Of a stretch of 46,294 nucleotides of DNA, positions 1,321 to 46,294 are shown in pieces. Within the stretch, counting starts at the first letter, position 1; each line of letters begins with the position of its first letter. A program made the position numbers and the translations under genes. Origin of the DNA: a virus (lineage: Duplodnaviria > Heunggongvirae > Uroviricota > Caudoviricetes); the IMG/VR virus record IMGVR_UViG_3300031555_010707. One strand, written 5' to 3'. The notes below the pieces were generated by a model, which searched no databases, was not told the DNA's origin, and saw only the letters and a program-made list of their open reading frames with translations.

Positions 1321-2157
1321 ATTAAAAGTGGTAGAAAGAGTATTTTTTCATTAGCGGAACAAGAATACATTCGTAGCAACTATCTTAATATGCCGTATAG
1401 CGACATCGCAGATATACTTGGATTCACCGAGCGTCAAATACGGGGGTGGATAAATAACCATTGCTGCAAAAAGAACAGGGTGTTCAACGCAAATTATTTT
1501 GACTGCATCGACTCTCCTGTAAAGGCATACTTCCTCGGTCTGATATATGCAGATGGCTGGATTTCTGCTCATAAAAGAAAAGAAACAGGTACTTATGCGT
1601 ATGAATTCGGAATTCAGCTGCAAAGAAATGATCGGTATTTGCTCGATTTGCTCAACTCCGAATTAGGAGGAGTTCACAAAATTGAAGACACTGAAGCCAA
1701 TTTTGTTATTGCAGACAATAAATATCCGAGTCATGTCCTATCGTCTGTTCTGCGAATTTATTCTAAGCGGCTTGTCATGTCATTGATGAATCACCATATC
1801 ACTACGGACAAGACTTATTCCAATCTGTTTCCAGTAGTGGATGACAGTCTGTTCATATATTTCATAAAAGGTTATTTTGATGGCGATGGATGCGTATCTG
1901 CAAATAAATATGGAAAGCCTGTAATTCATTTTACTGCGTTTGGAGATGAGTTTCTTCTTTATGTTCAGAAGAAGCTCGACGAATTGTACAATATAAAATC
2001 ATCAATTTACGCTGAAAATGACAGAAAACATAGGCTTATGATTTTCAGAAATGACGACGTATGCAGGTTCTATGATGTACTATACGCCGATAACTGTAAT
2101 GTGCAACTAAAGAGAAAATACGATAAATACTCAACCCTACTTGGCCTCTCCGCTTAG
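1321..2157 (+). CDS. Intron-encoded double-motif LAGLIDADG homing endonuclease with N-terminal HTH-like region (ATT 1321 likely start; first ATG at 1390)
   Basis: Motifs YFLGLIYADG and FIKGYFDGDG; frame open from 1309 after an in-frame TAA at 1306; SD at 1307-1313. Confidence 0.88.
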   Translation: MKSGRKSIFSLAEQEYIRSNYLNMPYSDIADILGFTERQIRGWINNHCCKKNRVFNANYFDCIDSPVKAYFLGLIYADGWISAHKRKETGTYAYEFGIQLQRNDRYLLDLLNSELGGVHKIEDTEANFVIADNKYPSHVLSSVLRIYSKRLVMSLMNHHITTDKTYSNLFPVVDDSLFIYFIKGYFDGDGCVSANKYGKPVIHFTAFGDEFLLYVQKKLDELYNIKSSIYAENDRKHRLMIFRNDDVCRFYDVLYADNCNVQLKRKYDKYSTLLGLSA

Positions 2158-39400: not shown

Positions 39401-40002
39401 CTCAGTGCAGAAAACTGGCAGCATGGCCGAGAGAGGTGCAGACTATTCAGGCTGCCGGCAATGATGATTTCATCTTCCGTATGTTCACCAAGACTGGAAC
39501 CGGAAGCTATTCGGCTTGCTGCTTCCTGCTGAAGAATCTGATGAGCATTCGTCGCAATATGAACCCGACGAACGTCAATCAGGGCGGTTGGGCTGCTACG
39601 GCGATGCGCGAATGGCTCAACACTCGCGTGCTGAACGCACTGCCTGCCCAGTGGCGTTTGATCCTGCAACAAGTAGATGTGAAGTCCACCGCTGGTAATA
39701 TGAGCACGACTGAGTTCGCAACATCTCAGGATTACCTGTGGTTGCCGAGCTGCAAGGAAGTGAACTTCAATACCACCTCCGCCGGATACTCTGGTGAAAG
39801 CAACGGTATCTTCAACCTGTTTACTGACAATGCAAGCAGAGTCAAGTATCTCAACAATGGTGAAGGCGCTGCCAACGGCTGGTGGCTTCGTTCTCCGAAT
39901 ACCGGCAGCACGACGTACTTCAACATTGTCCTTTCGGATGGCAACGGCACCAACACCAGCGCGAGCTACGCGTATGGCGTGTGTTTCGGCTTCTGCATCT
40001 AA
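33442..40002 (+). CDS. Giant DGR target protein (putative adhesin/receptor-binding protein): Ig-like/LamG - CotH-like kinase - LRR - InlB-B-like repeats - LamG - C-terminal CLec-like (DUF6273-type) variable domain
   Basis: 2186 aa; LamG pattern ~35160-35600; GTSSQKF..KNYK, DNRAKN and YDLD motifs 35870-36915; LRR ~37620-38050; YxVxFxN..GW repeats ~38280-38700; C-terminal GGW..MRxWLN..WWLRSP..GVCFGFCI containing the VR. Confidence 0.8.
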   Translation: MTSLTTNLKLFLTGADEVGMTFLEWRTAMNGIGNNSNMELIDAAIGNLMKSNDNKADGFSFNPETGVLQLTSGGKALAGANTSVTINLSKYYTKDEVDEILEELQSNLADNEALQNIQSTAVGDIDWVEDSRTMTLYNLNGEIKKELTIEGGGGGTGGGTAHSIRIINGMSSTSITSASSSSTILKAMFYEYYGSDSTGQSGTLDVDYKLSTESEWISLKKGQVVVQGVSFDVDVTDILTVGKTTNVRLTVTGGESSLSRTLTYNVASVEASIAAINFNAADVYTGNVNFQYRCMGRGLQKTVYFYIDGELYAYEDVGTSHNETKTKLIEMMGNYQYGAHDLVVYFETPDGAKSNEVRLPILYNDGTGTEPMIGAICMTDEVTYGDTLSIDYVVFTPNQESTDTLNIKVYAIEEDDKVYYFSTTLSNVQNGVIYNWQSANLPEAGMAYVEFSSGDTVKTISVIVNEIKTDYDIEPISTNLVYQFTPEGKSNNDSNRATYEHEYTTVNGVTTKVKGVNEGFNWVSDGYVDGECLTMSGTAKHTIKLPIFSASYTDDEDQTVNLESSANAQVTTNGRTLEFEFSVSSVTDQNAPIIKCMNNDHAGFIVTPQVCYLLASNGNNVALDDTGFIENEESIPAAYIKDDKRIRLSFVIEPLDTVNNRQCVNIYINGEFANSKPYDSANVYRSTEFITFGSDTCIMKLYDVRIYNRGLTTDEIRQNFMTSPVSVQDKIARLEDNDVMNDDGDDVDYEKAKYKYPCLLIIGELSPYKGAKKKCGAILTKPDGNGGYTTEFALLDKDQDGNYVCDTNVQGTSSQKFMRKNYKLAMKKLSYLEDGSIELDEDGAYVRKKVKYSLKGKDEEGNDLSIGESTLCYKIDYMSTDHGNTFNANLADGLFADKTISQQEDPRVQNTIWGFRCLLFRTDAETYPNGVIEFAGDGCLNNDKGNTKTFGLECDGDEGNQTKRQKWEFLNNTNAICFFKSDRLMKVNDPNATILNKEVVNALESCYPDQGDLKDDFGQEPNYDYIQVLFTWVCQRANFWNASTETAAVPFTYNGNNYNTEREYRKAIFLNEFTKHFNMDHAMTYYVFMEFVALCDNRAKNMFLRCEDVTVENLVFTDSSVTKLADIINSETGEVDADKIDWENSTFAIWLTDLYDLDSCFGAENSGYVRIPYYADWNYTLNGANQFNGYDSVLWLMVEEALADKIKEKAQSLASQELLCYESLYQVHIKDNAMLVCPAIVNRDMEYKYSDPWTDGYYDYSVSTSNPTWVQTQAYKYLQRGSRTEQKESFIYRRSHLLYSKYQCDQYRNNNINFRAGQDVQPENSAITMKATQAMYFGVKYGDTGNNINASGKVAAGVAQTITSTQRIGRSDTVYLYGGTDLTDIGDISAFYPYEIQLQKATKLKNLKIGSDAAGYQNTSLAGLDLSACTLLESINLMGCVGLANPIDFSKNTLIRKIHAGNSIIPYLKLPNGGVLEELKVGAVNNLTVLNMTGLTTFAYDSLDNLTRLHVENTPNIPVLDILKTRMNYLTDGIRLIGIDADIGDDTSVLEMLVSDTAKGKYLDNNGILSTDATRYPQVTGTVHCTTIGSHLLGEIQSIYPNLTIDYENIVTQYEVKFVNYDNTVLDTQYVVLGGSAVDPVTRENNPIATPTRPMTTSTIFTFKGWDSTFTMITGATTITATYSETTREYTVRWYNGDNLVQTKKVLYGGEATYDGETPTDTSMEQYLTYRLFDGWDNSTAYITGDLDVHAKYTQAAAPKVSSGKTLANMTPVELYAMVQTGVLAPNGGYNSISTNTDYYGMIESGDEFDMTFGHDVDFDNVDSQEIIPLDEPRTFTGNAGDYLDTGIKLFDEDKSFVLAVDFQFGSTTENGVLVGCSVNDNGFRLLYSGGGKVNFGGSLSPSVSSTLDREMLIIRKRKGDNNLYVYASNKSGSNQVYSRIVRTLATEHNSTLAFGCAWDSNDQYASNLTAGTIHWAKIWMDDLGDAQCRKLAAWPREVQTIQAAGNDDFIFRMFTKTGTGSYSACCFLLKNLMSIRRNMNPTNVNQGGWAATAMREWLNTRVLNALPAQWRLILQQVDVKSTAGNMSTTEFATSQDYLWLPSCKEVNFNTTSAGYSGESNGIFNLFTDNASRVKYLNNGEGAANGWWLRSPNTGSTTYFNIVLSDGNGTNTSASYAYGVCFGFCI
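39866..39995 (+). repeat. DGR variable repeat (VR)
   Basis: 130-nt ungapped match to 40598-40727 with 16 mismatches, each opposite a TR adenine; encodes the final residues of the 2186-aa protein. Confidence 0.97.
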
Positions 40003-40108: not shown

Positions 40109-40564
40109 ATTTCGGTAATCAAAAGCAAGCGTAGCGAATCCAGTATGCAATTCGTAGATACAGCAAGCAAATTACACATTTATACGGTCAAGCAATGCGT
40201 AAAATTTCCGAAGCGATATACGTTCTATGTTTCGCAGAACATATCGGATACGGCAAGTGAAATCCTGAAATGCGTTAAGAGCGCAAACAGCATCTATCCC
40301 ACAAATGCTCACGAGGTGCAGGTGAGGCGTGACTACTTCTTGCGGGCATATGCGGAAACTCAGAGCCTTGTCAGCCTGATTAACGATGCCAAAGAAATGT
40401 TTGATATTTCAGGAAGCGCAATGACCGGATGGATGGAGTTAATCCAAGCAGAACTGAATCTGCTGAAAGGCATTTTGAAAACGGATAAGCAACGATATAA
40501 GAAAATTTTGAACACGGACAGTTCTGACTCCGACATTGAAGAAACCGAAGAATCAGACGACTAA
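40109..40564 (+). CDS. avd: DGR accessory variability determinant (Avd-like four-helix protein); ATT 40109 likely start, first ATG 40145
   Basis: Located between VR and TR; helical ~150 aa; N-terminus (I)SVIKSKRSESSMQF resembles the MSVxKSKR start of Firmicutes DGR Avd proteins. Confidence 0.8.
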   Translation: MSVIKSKRSESSMQFVDTASKLHIYTVKQCVKFPKRYTFYVSQNISDTASEILKCVKSANSIYPTNAHEVQVRRDYFLRAYAETQSLVSLINDAKEMFDISGSAMTGWMELIQAELNLLKGILKTDKQRYKKILNTDSSDSDIEETEESDD

Positions 40565-40597: not shown

Positions 40598-40727
40598 GCG
40601 CTGCCAACAACTGGTGGCTTCGTTCTCCGAATACCGGCAACACGACGAACTTCAACAATGTCAATTCGGATGGCAACAACAACAACAACAACGCGAGCAA
40701 CACGAATGGCGTGTGTTTCGGATTCTG
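40598..40727 (+). repeat. DGR template repeat (TR)
   Basis: Non-coding copy of VR with 39 adenines and 16 AAC/AAT codons, including (AAC)6. Confidence 0.97.
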
Positions 40728-40988
40728 TGGGGCGACAAACAAATTATTACTGTCGTATGACCAGATCAGACAAAGTAACTCCTATTGGAGAGAAATCAGT
40801 ATCTACTACAGAAGGAGAATAGTTCCTTCCCTAAAAAGGTAAATTGACACCTCGGTATAACCGGTCGGACGCTTCTTGCATGGTTCTGCGATGGCATTAG
40901 CAGAATTTCATGGCCGTTGTTATCGGACAGCCAGATATGCCAATGGCGTGAAAACGCCAAGCTGTACGAGGTGTGGACGGAGCAGAGG
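40728..40988 (+). ncRNA. DGR RNA 3' spacer (structured region between TR and RT)
   Basis: Position typical of the DGR spacer; TTCTGC/GCAGAA stem ~40884-40905; CTACAGAA 40806-40813 is complementary to the TR 3' end. Confidence 0.5.
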
Positions 40989-42116
40989 ATGACAAGTATT
41001 GAACGACGGGAAATGCGCTACCAAAGGCGCAAAGCGAAACGAGAAGAAGCAAGAAAACGAAGAAACGAACTGTACGGCAATTTCGATAAGGTTTATACCT
41101 ATGAACACCTGTATCACTCTTATCTGATGTGCCGAAAGAATGTTCGATGGAAATCCAGCACGCAACGATATATTGCTAATGCTTCATTGAACGTGTATGA
41201 CGCTTACAAAAGATTGCACGAAGGCACGTTCAAAAGCCGTGGATTCTATGAATTCGATTTGTTTGAAAGAGGAAAGCCACGGCATATTCGAAGTGTTGAT
41301 GTACATGAGCGAGTGGTTCAAAGATGCACTTGCGACTATTCCCTCATTCCCATGTTGCAACCATCCTTCGTTTATGATAATGGCGCAAGCATGAAAAACA
41401 AAGGATACCATTTCGCGGTGAAAAGATTCAACCGCCATCTTCAACGGCATATCCGCAAACATGGAAATCGCGGATATGTTCTTTTATTTGATTTCTCCAG
41501 TTATTTTGACAGCATTCCTCATGACCTGTTGATGAAGATTCTTGATAAGGCTTACGATGACGAAAGAACTCTGAAGCTGATTAAGCACTTCATCGACATG
41601 TTTGGCGATAAAGGCATTGGCCTTGGAAGCCAAGTTTCGCAGGTGTTGGCACTTGCTGCTGCAAATGAACTCGACCACTTTATTAAGGAAGAGCTTCGTG
41701 CAAAGTGCTATGGGCGGTATATGGACGACGGCTATATTATCCACGAAAGCAAGGAATATCTGGAAGAATGTATGGAGAAGATCAATCAGAAGTGTATTGA
41801 AATGGGCTTGAAATTGAGCATCAAGAAAACACGAGTAGTTCCAATCTTCAGAGATTTCATGTGGCTCAAAATCCGTTATCGCGTAACGGAAACAGGACAC
41901 ATCGTAAAACGCATTTGGAGAAAGAGTGTGGTGCGTATGCGCAGAAAACTGAAGAAACTCAAAAGAAAGCTGGAACAAGGAGTGATAACGGCGTTCGACG
42001 TTTATCAATCTGTTCAGTCGTGGAAGAGCCATGCTCGTGGACTGGCAGTATATCACACTATGAAGAGACTGGATGAACTTATATTCAACCTATTTGGTAC
42101 AGAGGTGATTGTATGA
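40989..42116 (+). CDS. DGR reverse transcriptase
   Basis: Start MTSIERREMRYQRRK at ATG 40989; RT motifs ERVVQ, FDFSSYFDSI, GIGLGSQVSQ, YGRYMDD; adjacent to TR. Confidence 0.95.
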   Translation: MTSIERREMRYQRRKAKREEARKRRNELYGNFDKVYTYEHLYHSYLMCRKNVRWKSSTQRYIANASLNVYDAYKRLHEGTFKSRGFYEFDLFERGKPRHIRSVDVHERVVQRCTCDYSLIPMLQPSFVYDNGASMKNKGYHFAVKRFNRHLQRHIRKHGNRGYVLLFDFSSYFDSIPHDLLMKILDKAYDDERTLKLIKHFIDMFGDKGIGLGSQVSQVLALAAANELDHFIKEELRAKCYGRYMDDGYIIHESKEYLEECMEKINQKCIEMGLKLSIKKTRVVPIFRDFMWLKIRYRVTETGHIVKRIWRKSVVRMRRKLKKLKRKLEQGVITAFDVYQSVQSWKSHARGLAVYHTMKRLDELIFNLFGTEVIV

Positions 42117-42882: not shown

Positions 42883-43605
42883 TTGAAAAAGCTATATAAA
42901 ACACTGATTTTGTTTTTCATAGGAGGTGGACTTTACCTTCTGATCGAGATGCTCTGGAGGGCAATCATGGGCAGTCATCCAACGCATTGGGCTATGCTCT
43001 TTGTGGGAGGACTGTCCTTTGTCCTCGTAGGAGGCATCAACGAATGGATTCCGTGGGAACTGTCCCTTATGAAGCAAAGCCTGATCGGCACAGCGGTTAT
43101 ACTGCTGACGGAATTCATCAGCGGCTGTATTCTGAATCTATGGCTGGGGCTTGGAATTTGGGATTACTCAGACAAATTTCTCAATCTGTGCGGGCAAATC
43201 TGTCCTCAATTTGCAATCGGATGGTTTCTGCTTGCCGGTGTAGCTATTGTACTTGACGATTATCTTCGGTATTGGATGTTCGGAGAGGAGAAACCGCACT
43301 ATCAGATTGTTGAAGTGAAAAAGCGCAGACGCAAGAAAAAGAAGAAAGTAGAGTTTTCAAAGATTCTTGTAACTTGGGCACTGGTTCTTACAACGTTATG
43401 CGTGGCTCTCTCCTATGTTTTATCGTTCTCAGATCATGATCCTGCGTCTGATGTAACTGTTGCTGTTGCGTCAGCTTGTATCGCTATTGCCGTTGCTTAT
43501 GAAGCAAAGAGCTTCGGTGAAAAGAACAGCCGAAACAAATATGGCGTTGATAAAAATGGCTACAAGATCGAGCCTGCTTCTGATGATGAAAACGCTGTCG
43601 GCTAA
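42883..43605 (+). CDS. Multi-pass membrane protein (TMEM229/CmpB-like N-part plus 2-TM holin-like C-part)
   Basis: Four hydrophobic segments with WDYS..NL.GQIC motif, then a KKRRRKKKKK linker and two more TM segments. Confidence 0.55.
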   Translation: MKKLYKTLILFFIGGGLYLLIEMLWRAIMGSHPTHWAMLFVGGLSFVLVGGINEWIPWELSLMKQSLIGTAVILLTEFISGCILNLWLGLGIWDYSDKFLNLCGQICPQFAIGWFLLAGVAIVLDDYLRYWMFGEEKPHYQIVEVKKRRRKKKKKVEFSKILVTWALVLTTLCVALSYVLSFSDHDPASDVTVAVASACIAIAVAYEAKSFGEKNSRNKYGVDKNGYKIEPASDDENAVG

Positions 43606-43619
43606 CTAAGGAGGAAACT

Positions 43620-44339
43620 ATGAGTACAACCGATAATGCAAAAACCATTTGGGACTTCCTGAAAGGGAAGGGTCTAAACGATTATGCAGTTGCCGGTCTG
43701 ATGGGGAATCTGAAAGCTGAATCCGCATTGAACCCCAAGAATCTGCAAGGTAGCTATGAGAGGAAGCTCGGCTTTACAGACGAAACCTATACTGCAGCTG
43801 TAGATGACGGCTCGTACAATAACTTCGTAAAAGATAAAGCTGGCTACGGACTGGCGCAATGGACTTATTGGAGCAGAAAACAGAACCTGCTTAATTTCGC
43901 AAAGAGCAAAAATACTTCTATCGGAGATCTGTCCATGCAACTTGAATTCTTGTGGAAAGAATTGCAGGGGTACAAATCCGTTATGGAAACGCTTAATAAG
44001 GCTACTTCGATTCTGGAAGCCTCTAATGCGGTTCTTAAAGGCTACGAACGCCCTGCAAATCAAGGAGAAAGTGCCCAGAAGAAGAGAGAAGCATACGGGC
44101 AAGATTACTATGATAAGTATGCAAAGAAGCCCGAAGTCGAATTTGTTCCCTATGAGCCACCTGTCGCTACTATTGAACCTGCGCAAAGAACGCACACCGT
44201 AAAGCGCGGAGATACGCTTTGGGGTCTTGCAAAAAAGTATCTTGGGTCTGGGTTGAAGTGGACAAAGATTGCCAAACTCAATAACATTAAAGGCACTCTG
44301 ATTCGCACTGGACAGGTTCTCAAAATTCCAGAAAAGTAA
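43620..44339 (+). CDS. Cell-wall hydrolase: phage tail lysozyme (Phage_lysozyme2-like) plus LysM
   Basis: AGLMGNLKAESALNP, GYGLAQWT, YERPA; C-terminal HTVKRGDTLWGLAKKY LysM. Confidence 0.85.
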   Translation: MSTTDNAKTIWDFLKGKGLNDYAVAGLMGNLKAESALNPKNLQGSYERKLGFTDETYTAAVDDGSYNNFVKDKAGYGLAQWTYWSRKQNLLNFAKSKNTSIGDLSMQLEFLWKELQGYKSVMETLNKATSILEASNAVLKGYERPANQGESAQKKREAYGQDYYDKYAKKPEVEFVPYEPPVATIEPAQRTHTVKRGDTLWGLAKKYLGSGLKWTKIAKLNNIKGTLIRTGQVLKIPEK

Positions 44340-44377
44340 AAAATGAAAATAGAACCTAAGAAAGGCGGAGATATAAT

Positions 44378-45013
44378 GTGCTGAGCTACATTGAGTATTT
44401 GGAACAACATATAGGGCTTCCTGGCCTTATTGTGACAGCGCTTGTTGTGCTGTTTTTTATTTTGCAGATCGTTGGAGAGTTGCTTGAGTTCAAAGGTAAA
44501 ATTGTGCCGGAGTTTCTCAAGATTCGCAAGTTCTTTCAACGCAGAAAGCAAGAAAAGTTGGAAACACAACAGACAATCCAAGATGTCAGGAAGTTACTTG
44601 CTGAAGTCAATGCTCACTATTCCAAAGACAATATTACGAAACGGGATAGCTGGATGAACTGGGTTAACGACAGGGCAAAAGTCTATGACCGAACCATCGT
44701 TGATATGACAAAGAATATGAACGATGTTACCGAGGCACTTAATGCCAACACCCGGATGACCGAAGAGATGTTTATTCAGAGCAGCAGGGACAGAATTCTT
44801 GATTTTGCCACCAAGGCTTCCAACAAAGATGCTCTATTGTCCCGAGAGGAATTTAAGCGTATTTTCAAGGTATATGATGAGTACGAAAGATTCCTTGAAG
44901 AGCATGGGAAAACCAACGGCGAAATTGCAATTGCACACCGTGTTATCAATGAAGCATACGAGTACCGCTTGAAGCATTCTTCATTCATTGAGGACATCAG
45001 AGGTTACAAATAA
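44378..45013 (+). CDS. Single-TM coiled-coil membrane protein, putative holin-like
   Basis: N-terminal TM segment LIVTALVVLFFILQIV; lies between two lysins. Confidence 0.5.
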   Translation: MLSYIEYLEQHIGLPGLIVTALVVLFFILQIVGELLEFKGKIVPEFLKIRKFFQRRKQEKLETQQTIQDVRKLLAEVNAHYSKDNITKRDSWMNWVNDRAKVYDRTIVDMTKNMNDVTEALNANTRMTEEMFIQSSRDRILDFATKASNKDALLSREEFKRIFKVYDEYERFLEEHGKTNGEIAIAHRVINEAYEYRLKHSSFIEDIRGYK

Positions 45014-45027
45014 TGCAATAAACGAAA

Positions 45028-45058
45028 AGAGGGCGACTGTGTAATTACAGCCGCCCTT
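45028..45058 (+). terminator. Putative terminator hairpin
   Basis: AGGGCG-aCTGT-gtaatt-ACAGc-CGCCCT followed by TTCT. Confidence 0.45.
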
Positions 45059-45096
45059 TCTATATACGGGATTTCATTTGGAGGTAAGGTATTTTT

Positions 45097-46023
45097 ATGA
45101 CTGCGAACGAGAAGCGAGCAGCTGTAGCTGCTAAGTATAAATCTATTCTTGGAAGGAACTACTACAGTCAGCCGAAACGAGATTATTGCTTTAAGCAATA
45201 TAAAGATGGCAAATACTATTCCGATTGTTCCAGTTCAATTAGTTACTGCTATAAAGAAGCTGGCTTTGGATTTGGTATCCTGAATACAGTAGGCATGTAT
45301 CAGAGCAAGAAAATGACTACTGTGCCTGTAATCATCAAGAATGGACAGATTCAAAACCCAGAGGTACTTCGCATTGGAGACATGCTGTTATTTGCCGGAT
45401 CAGATTCTGGACGTGCATATGCAGGATATGTCGGCCATGTAGAAATGGTTTACGAAATCAATGGAACGAACGTAACCTTATGCGGACATGGCAGTGGTCG
45501 CCCGAGTACCAAGAAGATGACAACGTACTGCAAGAGCAGATATAATTCCAAGTCAACGACCGGACTCGGCAATAAGGGGCTGATTAAGGTTGTACGATTC
45601 ATTCAGGATGATGAAGGTGCTGTAACAGCCCCTATTGAGCCACAGAAGCCCACTACAGCCTCTCCGAGCAAAGATGTAGTGAAGATTACAGGTGGATCTG
45701 TGTACATTCGTACCGGCCCTGGAACGTCTTACAGCATGTATCAGGTTGCGAGACGAGGGGACGAATTTGAGCGGCTGGATTCTGAAGGCTGGATTGCGAT
45801 TCAGTTTGAGGGCAAGGTCAGATGGATTTCGGGTAAGTATGTAAGTCCTGCTGGCCTATGTTCTGGCAATACGGTAAATGTTCGCACTGGCGCAGGAACC
45901 GGGTTCCCATCTGTCGGAGTAGTTCGTAAGAATGACCGCTTGAATAAGGTCGATTACGAAGGATGGATTCCTGTAGTTATTGACCGGGATGTCAAATGGG
46001 TATCTGATAAATACGCCGACTAA
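45097..46023 (+). CDS. Endolysin: NlpC/P60 (CHAP-clan) peptidase plus two SH3b domains
   Basis: YYSDCSSSI (catalytic Cys), GHVEMV (His); IRTGPGT and VRTGAGT SH3b repeats. Confidence 0.85.
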   Translation: MTANEKRAAVAAKYKSILGRNYYSQPKRDYCFKQYKDGKYYSDCSSSISYCYKEAGFGFGILNTVGMYQSKKMTTVPVIIKNGQIQNPEVLRIGDMLLFAGSDSGRAYAGYVGHVEMVYEINGTNVTLCGHGSGRPSTKKMTTYCKSRYNSKSTTGLGNKGLIKVVRFIQDDEGAVTAPIEPQKPTTASPSKDVVKITGGSVYIRTGPGTSYSMYQVARRGDEFERLDSEGWIAIQFEGKVRWISGKYVSPAGLCSGNTVNVRTGAGTGFPSVGVVRKNDRLNKVDYEGWIPVVIDRDVKWVSDKYAD

Positions 46024-46050
46024 AAATGCGCGAGTGAATTGAAGTGAAAT

Positions 46051-46113
46051 AAAAAAAGGCCACTGAGCAATGAACGGTGATGATCCGTCAAAGTTCAGTG
46101 GCCTTATTTTTTT
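46051..46113. terminator. Bidirectional intrinsic terminator
   Basis: AAAAAAAGGCCACTGAGC ... GTTCAGTGGCCTTATTTTTTT; A-tract and T-tract flank the stem between convergent genes. Confidence 0.75.
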
Positions 46114-46195
46114 AGGGGTTAAGTAGAGATAGGTTGCTTGCGAATTGGCTCATGTTGATAATCAGGGTTATCGTTCGTATAAATGACACATGTGA

Positions 46196-46294
46196 GGGGT
46201 CTCCCTCGCGAATGCGCAGCGTGCGGCGGATTTCTTTGGGAACGACGATTCTCCCGAGATCATCAATTCGGCGGACGATTCCTGTTGCTCTCAT
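46196..46294 (-). pseudogene. spoVT: 5' fragment (33 codons) of a SpoVT-like regulator, truncated at a probable prophage attachment junction
   Basis: MRATGIVRRIDDLGRIVVPKEIRRTLRIREGDP closely matches the SpoVT N-terminus (B. subtilis MKATGIVRRIDDLGRVVIPKEIRRTLRIREGDPLEIF), then switches to unrelated SHVSFIRT... and stops at 46112. Confidence 0.8.

Follow-up and report, generated by a model that had tools for sequence, protein, structure and literature searches.

A roughly 123-kb virus related to Bacillus phage SPbeta is integrated precisely inside the canonical spoVT gene of an uncultured Clostridia bacterium from animal faeces, and its own large serine recombinase (LSR) made the insertion. 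Because spoVT probably acts in the developing spore itself, as suggested by its dependence on sigma-F and sigma-G in C. difficile (PMC3738446), rebuilding the gene would need excision in the heritable cell line rather than in the discarded mother cell. Full-text searches found no paper linking spoVT with a prophage, an attB site or a serine recombinase, and the element-split sporulation genes named in the papers we read (sigK, spsM, spoVFB, spoVR, gerE and yabG) are described as mother-cell or late-sporulation genes. The case presented here ties a spoVT-targeting recombinase family to a phage whose free form is seen in nature, and provides exact attP, attL and attR sequences, with attB inferred from the two junctions.

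The window, by which we mean the whole 46,294-nucleotide stretch analyzed (IMG/VR record IMGVR_UViG_3300031555_010707), ends in an ORF at 46112-46294 (-) encoding 60 aa, whose ATG is the last three bases of the window. Residues 1-33, encoded by 46196-46294 (-), are 33/33 identical to the start of the intact 184-aa SpoVT of a related genome (L019:11042-11596), but match Pfam PF04014 only over profile positions 1-26 of 48, meaning that the AbrB-type DNA-binding domain is cut roughly in half at codon 33 (46196-46198). An inverted repeat, GAGGG-gtct-CCCTC at 46194-46207, and the palindrome CACATGTG at 46187-46194 are both present; on their own they are chance-sized, and their meaning comes from spanning the recombinase crossover and the phage-derived att arm. 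A bidirectional intrinsic terminator at 46058-46103, with an A-run before it and a T-run after it, folds at -30.2 kcal/mol (z = -7.0 against shuffles), though a simple terminator scan missed it because its loop is long. This hairpin separates the 60-aa ORF from the convergent endolysin gene at 45097-46023 (+), the last phage gene before the junction, which carries SH3_3 repeats and a weak CHAP match. The virus record corresponding to this window (58852 bp, classed linear, about 50% complete by CheckV) matches window positions 1-46201 with one difference and ends at 46201, the first base of the shared att core, and the last 93 bases of the window are therefore host DNA. As these 93 bases are not found anywhere in the virus record on either strand, a circular wrap-around is rejected.

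The junction recurs in more than 20 contigs from several samples. The identical 60-aa ORF was found on 11 contigs from several JGI and ENA samples, always in the order sulfatase, ABC transporter, EamA, metallophosphatase, PfkB kinase, spoVT fragment and phage endolysin, and 23 contigs carry the host's exact PfkB protein, with the prophage present in every context shown. In public sequencing runs, one contig of run X1 (possibly the source) spans 44800-46294 with no differences, and a contig of a second run, X8, also bridges the junction. Interestingly, in run X9 the same phage end is joined to a spoVT 5' part written with different codons, so a near relative of the phage sits at the same place in another host. 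The related genome L019, whose PfkB is 85% identical, has PfkB, an intact spoVT, a mazG-family gene, hbs, an S4-domain gene and ispDF in that order and a single SpoVT_C match; spoVT followed by yabN (mazG family) and yabO (S4 domain) is probably also the conserved order in Bacillus subtilis, identifying the split copy as the canonical spoVT.

To find the other end of the prophage, we scanned metagenomes with SpoVT residues 34-184 and recovered nine loci in which the 3' part, beginning at GDP-LEI, is preceded by foreign in-frame sequence; in the three tested, this frame is an LSR (Resolvase, Recombinase, Zn ribbon) fused to SpoVT_C. For this host, we traced the downstream mazG gene, whose exact product lies on 24 contigs. 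In every context that reaches upstream of mazG, it is preceded by a 741-aa ORF (L072:7712-9937, on one such contig) with Resolvase (PF00239), Recombinase (PF07508), Zn_ribbon_recom (PF13408) and SpoVT_C domains, which is followed by mazG, hbs, an S4-domain gene, ispDF and luxS, and is itself preceded by phage early genes (NADAR, dUTPase, FolD, DNA methylase). One of these contigs (ENA contig 0NVsmWI6, 173 kb) also carries the window's LAGLIDADG and YonO-type genes, and the two ends are therefore physically linked. The fusion reads ...DSDGDP-LEIYTDHDGEVVLKKYSP... through to the normal SpoVT stop, joining the LSR in frame to SpoVT residues 31-184. Joining the window's 33 codons to it in silico gives an uninterrupted 184-aa SpoVT, identical to the L019 protein (which hits PF04014 and PF15714) at 170 of 184 residues (92%). 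Both halves are undamaged, and precise attL x attR recombination would rebuild the gene.

The 5' junction in the window (GGA GAC CCC) and the 3' junction in L072 (GGC GAC CCT) share only GACCC, at window 46197-46201 (-) (GGGTC on the + strand), inside codons 32-33. Among unfused relatives of the recombinase, the 617-aa P0026, which has the same three recombinase domains, ends in ...DSDGDP followed by exactly the 27 residues that follow codon 33 in the window. Thus, although the sequence-only reading correctly placed the prophage inside spoVT, the 27 residues that it considered unrelated are the native C-terminal tail of the phage's own LSR, encoded with its stop at 46112-46195 (-). Contigs carrying P0026 (123221 bp, 20012 bp and a Logan contig, from other samples) show the recombinase gene running convergently into the same endolysin, representing attP, the joined ends of the free phage. 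This free form is 98.8% identical to the window up to base 46201 and 97.9% identical to L072, where its alignment stops 7 nt later, such that the two alignments overlap by 7 nt at the core. The best dyad center of attP falls between the G and A of GACCC, with 15 of 25 complementary positions against at most 10 elsewhere, giving an inferred crossover dinucleotide of GA (46200-46201). The attP site has 10-bp perfect outer arms (TATAAATGAC / GTCATTTATA), with the phage-side arm TATAAATGAC at 46178-46187 pairing with the same 10-mer on the recombinase side. Since attP lies inside the 3' end of the recombinase ORF, integration swaps protein tails: the first 33 SpoVT residues receive the 27-residue recombinase tail, while the recombinase loses that tail and gains SpoVT(31-184).

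This insertion site is used repeatedly. Of the 120 best 90%-cluster representatives related to one such recombinase, 58 are fusions joined 154-155 residues from the C-terminus, and 52 of the 62 unfused ones carry G[DSA]P followed by a tail of about 27 residues. Among 121 relatives, 88 have SpoVT_C, and in five of these species representatives the only SpoVT_C match lies inside an open frame of 670 aa or more. The four of these five that were tested retain SpoIVA, Spo0A and SpoVAC/SpoVAEB as open frames, and three retain SASP. We infer that spoVT, being silent in growing cells, highly conserved and single-copy, is a cheap and reliable landing site, which would explain why a whole recombinase family targets this one spot. 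Such a highly conserved natural target may also make the family a useful integration tool for spore-forming Firmicutes.

We infer that no functional SpoVT can be made in the lysogen, because the DNA-binding domain is cut in half, and that mother-cell excision, as occurs for skin or SPbeta, cannot supply a protein acting in the forespore under sigma-F/sigma-G. A GNATA-N17/18-A-rich -10 motif conserved upstream of spoVT across 10 loci fits a forespore-type promoter, though this is a resemblance rather than a test. Our preferred reading, which we consider about as likely as not, is that excision is coupled to sporulation, in the forespore or just before septation, with the circular phage carried in the non-dividing spore and reintegrated by the recombinase at germination. 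We hold the explanation as a whole, from integration to fate, with moderate confidence, and the proposal in the sequence-only reading that the phage either disables or retunes spore maturation or excises in the spore line remains an inference, as nothing here shows when or in which compartment excision occurs. Several results do not favor regulated rescue. By eye, the region upstream of the recombinase reads as a housekeeping extended -10 promoter (TTGTTT-N18-TGaTATAAT) rather than a forespore type, though a consensus scan called no promoter there, and no recombination directionality factor was identified, albeit without a systematic search. No empty-site (attB) allele of this host was found: the closest intact SpoVT matches the rebuilt protein at only 172 of 184 residues among the cluster representatives and members compared, and contigs of four runs showed no host attB or attP joint, although contigs drop rare variants and thus say nothing about excision. 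Short X1 contigs with loose ends at 46196-46200 are intact spoVT genes of other community members (90-95% alike), and a sister species with an intact spoVT has three extra genes between PfkB and spoVT (PfkB DNA 75% identical) and is not the host's empty site. It is conceivable, though in our view less likely than not, that a large family of phages and islands in gut and rumen Clostridia excises in the germ line to let SpoVT be made and reintegrates at germination once the recombinase regains its native tail, with the tail swap sensing the integration state; this would be the first developmentally programmed, reversible DNA rearrangement in the heritable compartment of a sporulating bacterium.

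The main alternative, less likely but a serious possibility, is plain insertional inactivation, in which spoVT serves only as a conserved landing site, excision happens only on phage induction, and lysogens make few or defective spores or rely on rare cured cells, as could be tolerated in the gut or in enrichment culture. The missing attB allele, the vegetative-looking recombinase promoter and the presence of the prophage in all contexts shown for the host's PfkB and MazG proteins are consistent with this view, as is the fact that the lysogen contigs come largely from one series of faecal samples, so that constant lysogeny may reflect one strain. In contrast, the same site is used by very many elements in many species, and the retention of sporulation genes in the four split-spoVT genomes tested is hard to square with a lasting loss of sporulation, although recent insertions would look the same; indeed, as the phage is 98-99% identical to its free form, the intact spoVT halves may simply reflect a recent insertion rather than selection. 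If there is no rescue, these very common elements may handicap spore maturation in many gut Clostridia, which would matter for their transmission and persistence.

A further and rather doubtful possibility, not exclusive of the others, is that the products of the split gene are themselves functional, with the SpoVT(GAF) fusion or the loss of the native tail changing recombinase stability or directionality once integrated. In support, attP lies inside the recombinase ORF across the whole family, all 58 fusion ORFs are in frame and joined at the same residue, and the tail stays similar beyond the length of an att half-site; however, in-frame fusion follows automatically if the crossover lies in matching GDP codons, and tail conservation may partly reflect constraint on the att DNA. 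That a second, intact spoVT or functional paralogue in the host or on the phage makes the split copy irrelevant, a caveat raised in the sequence-only reading, is unlikely but not excluded. The host species was not found among the 61 relatives searched with the host-flank DNA (best 75% DNA identity) or among genome contigs (best PfkB 85%), so that copy number could be tested only in relatives. Of the 88 relatives with SpoVT_C, 83 show a single match; of the five with two, two are contig splits, one is a broken copy and one has two full matches on separate contigs. All five split-spoVT species have only the split copy, and no AbrB-type domain was found in the roughly half-complete 58.8-kb phage record. 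Finally, a phage-encoded AbrB-like mini-gene or an assembly chimera, the latter of which the end of the virus record at 46201 could by itself suggest, is refuted by the continuation of the 99 nt into host genes on every contig shown, by their replacement with the recombinase in the free phage, and by the independent assemblies and two sequencing runs that bridge the junction.

The closest known system is the SPbeta prophage in spsM of B. subtilis, which uses the SprA LSR and the SprB directionality factor (PMC4191935, PMC5499854). Like SPbeta, the element described here is a large phage with a recombinase gene at one prophage end, a free form, and an insertion inside a sporulation gene that leaves both halves intact. 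Unlike spsM, which is needed in the mother cell, where SPbeta excision was shown to occur specifically, spoVT is probably a forespore gene, and here attP lies inside the recombinase ORF, so the recombinase becomes fused to the C-terminus of its target. Serine-recombinase elements also split sporulation genes at fixed, exactly restorable sites in the case of skin in sigK (SpoIVCA in B. subtilis; CD1231 plus the directionality factor CD1234 in C. difficile; PMC5025042) and of vfbin/spoVFB, vrin/spoVR, gin/gerE and yin/yabG (PMC5595907, PMC10747680). In the papers read, sigK, spoVFB, spoVR, spsM and gerE are described as mother-cell genes and yabG only as a sporulation-specific protease gene, and most of those elements are defective prophages or non-phage elements, whereas the element here appears to be a complete phage. 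The accepted logic is that the mother cell dies and the rearrangement is never inherited, a logic that an SPbeta-like phage in spoVT appears to break. A functional analogue for the proposed cycle, for which no evidence was obtained here, may be the "active lysogeny" of Listeria phage phi10403S in comK (Feiner et al. 2015, cited in PMC10747680), which involves a different recombinase and host and probably entails excision in growing cells inside phagosomes, without lysis, followed by episomal persistence and reintegration.

Window positions 1-46195 (+) hold the late half of this prophage, comprising structural, tail, diversity-generating retroelement and lysis genes, while the early half and the recombinase lie outside the window. 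Pfam families YonG, YonD, YonB, YomW, YomV, YonV_C and RdRP (a YonO-type RNA polymerase) mark it as SPbeta-like. Its size of about 123 kb rests on the free-form contig and agrees with about 75.8 kb plus about 52.8 kb of phage DNA on two lysogen contigs of one sample and with the CheckV estimate for the 58.8-kb record. The closest deposited homologues of the RNA polymerase are in Clostridium phage c-st (42% identity) and Enterocloster phages CB473P1 and PMBT24 (38%), which belong to the same broad group of large temperate Firmicute phages, with about 30% identity to its match in the B. subtilis phage BUCT082. The recombinase, by comparison, has no relative in deposited phage genomes above 33% identity.

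The phage also carries a diversity-generating retroelement. A 130-nt template repeat (window 40598-40727) and a variable repeat at the 3' end of the gene encoding the 2186-aa tail protein (39866-39995) differ at 16 positions, and all 16 are adenines in the template; a reverse transcriptase gene (40917-42116) and a 139-aa ORF (40145-40564) lie beside them. Two separate lysis-type modules are also present, with a holin-like gene plus a 360-aa PG_binding_1 hydrolase found in the middle of the phage (8289-9775 of G000, the virus record for this window, locus L001) and a lysozyme/LysM gene plus an SH3 endolysin found at the right end (window 42883-46023). In addition to the serine recombinase used for integration, two tyrosine-recombinase genes encoding products of 271 and 355 aa lie inside the phage (G000 1892-2707 and 11243-12310), the second of which is next to an HU-like gene. 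A LAGLIDADG homing-endonuclease ORF (window 1390-2157) stands alone between the YonG-like gene and the next large structural genes, and is present in related contigs.

The first 1400 bases of G000 are a GC-rich stretch (57-66% GC, against about 43-55% further on), with a 77-nt direct repeat at the very start of the record and a 341-379-aa ORF with a helix-turn-helix domain; as this stretch is part of the phage in several independent contigs (L013-L016), it is not a chimera. At the other end, G000 stops at the first base of the att core (window 46201) and not at a gene boundary, while the window runs 93 bases further to the ATG of the spoVT fragment, and the two records were evidently cut by different rules.

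A related recombinase, the 627-aa protein P0046, found on contigs of up to 239727 bp, ends in a tail that is the antisense translation of the spoVT 5' part (…SPSRMRSVRRISLG…), meaning that it is joined to spoVT in inverted orientation, which would call for inversion rather than excision. In sequencing run X11, a contig with a loose end before window 46195 joins a spoVT 5' part (…GGAGAC) to a different sequence (TATATTTATACG…), and this is probably the junction of another element of the same family in another organism of that sample. Finally, a sister species found in the same samples (contigs L066 and L068 and a 135-kb contig) has three extra genes, encoding a 389-aa protein, a 305-aa Fer4 protein, and an AraC-type regulator, between PfkB and an intact spoVT.
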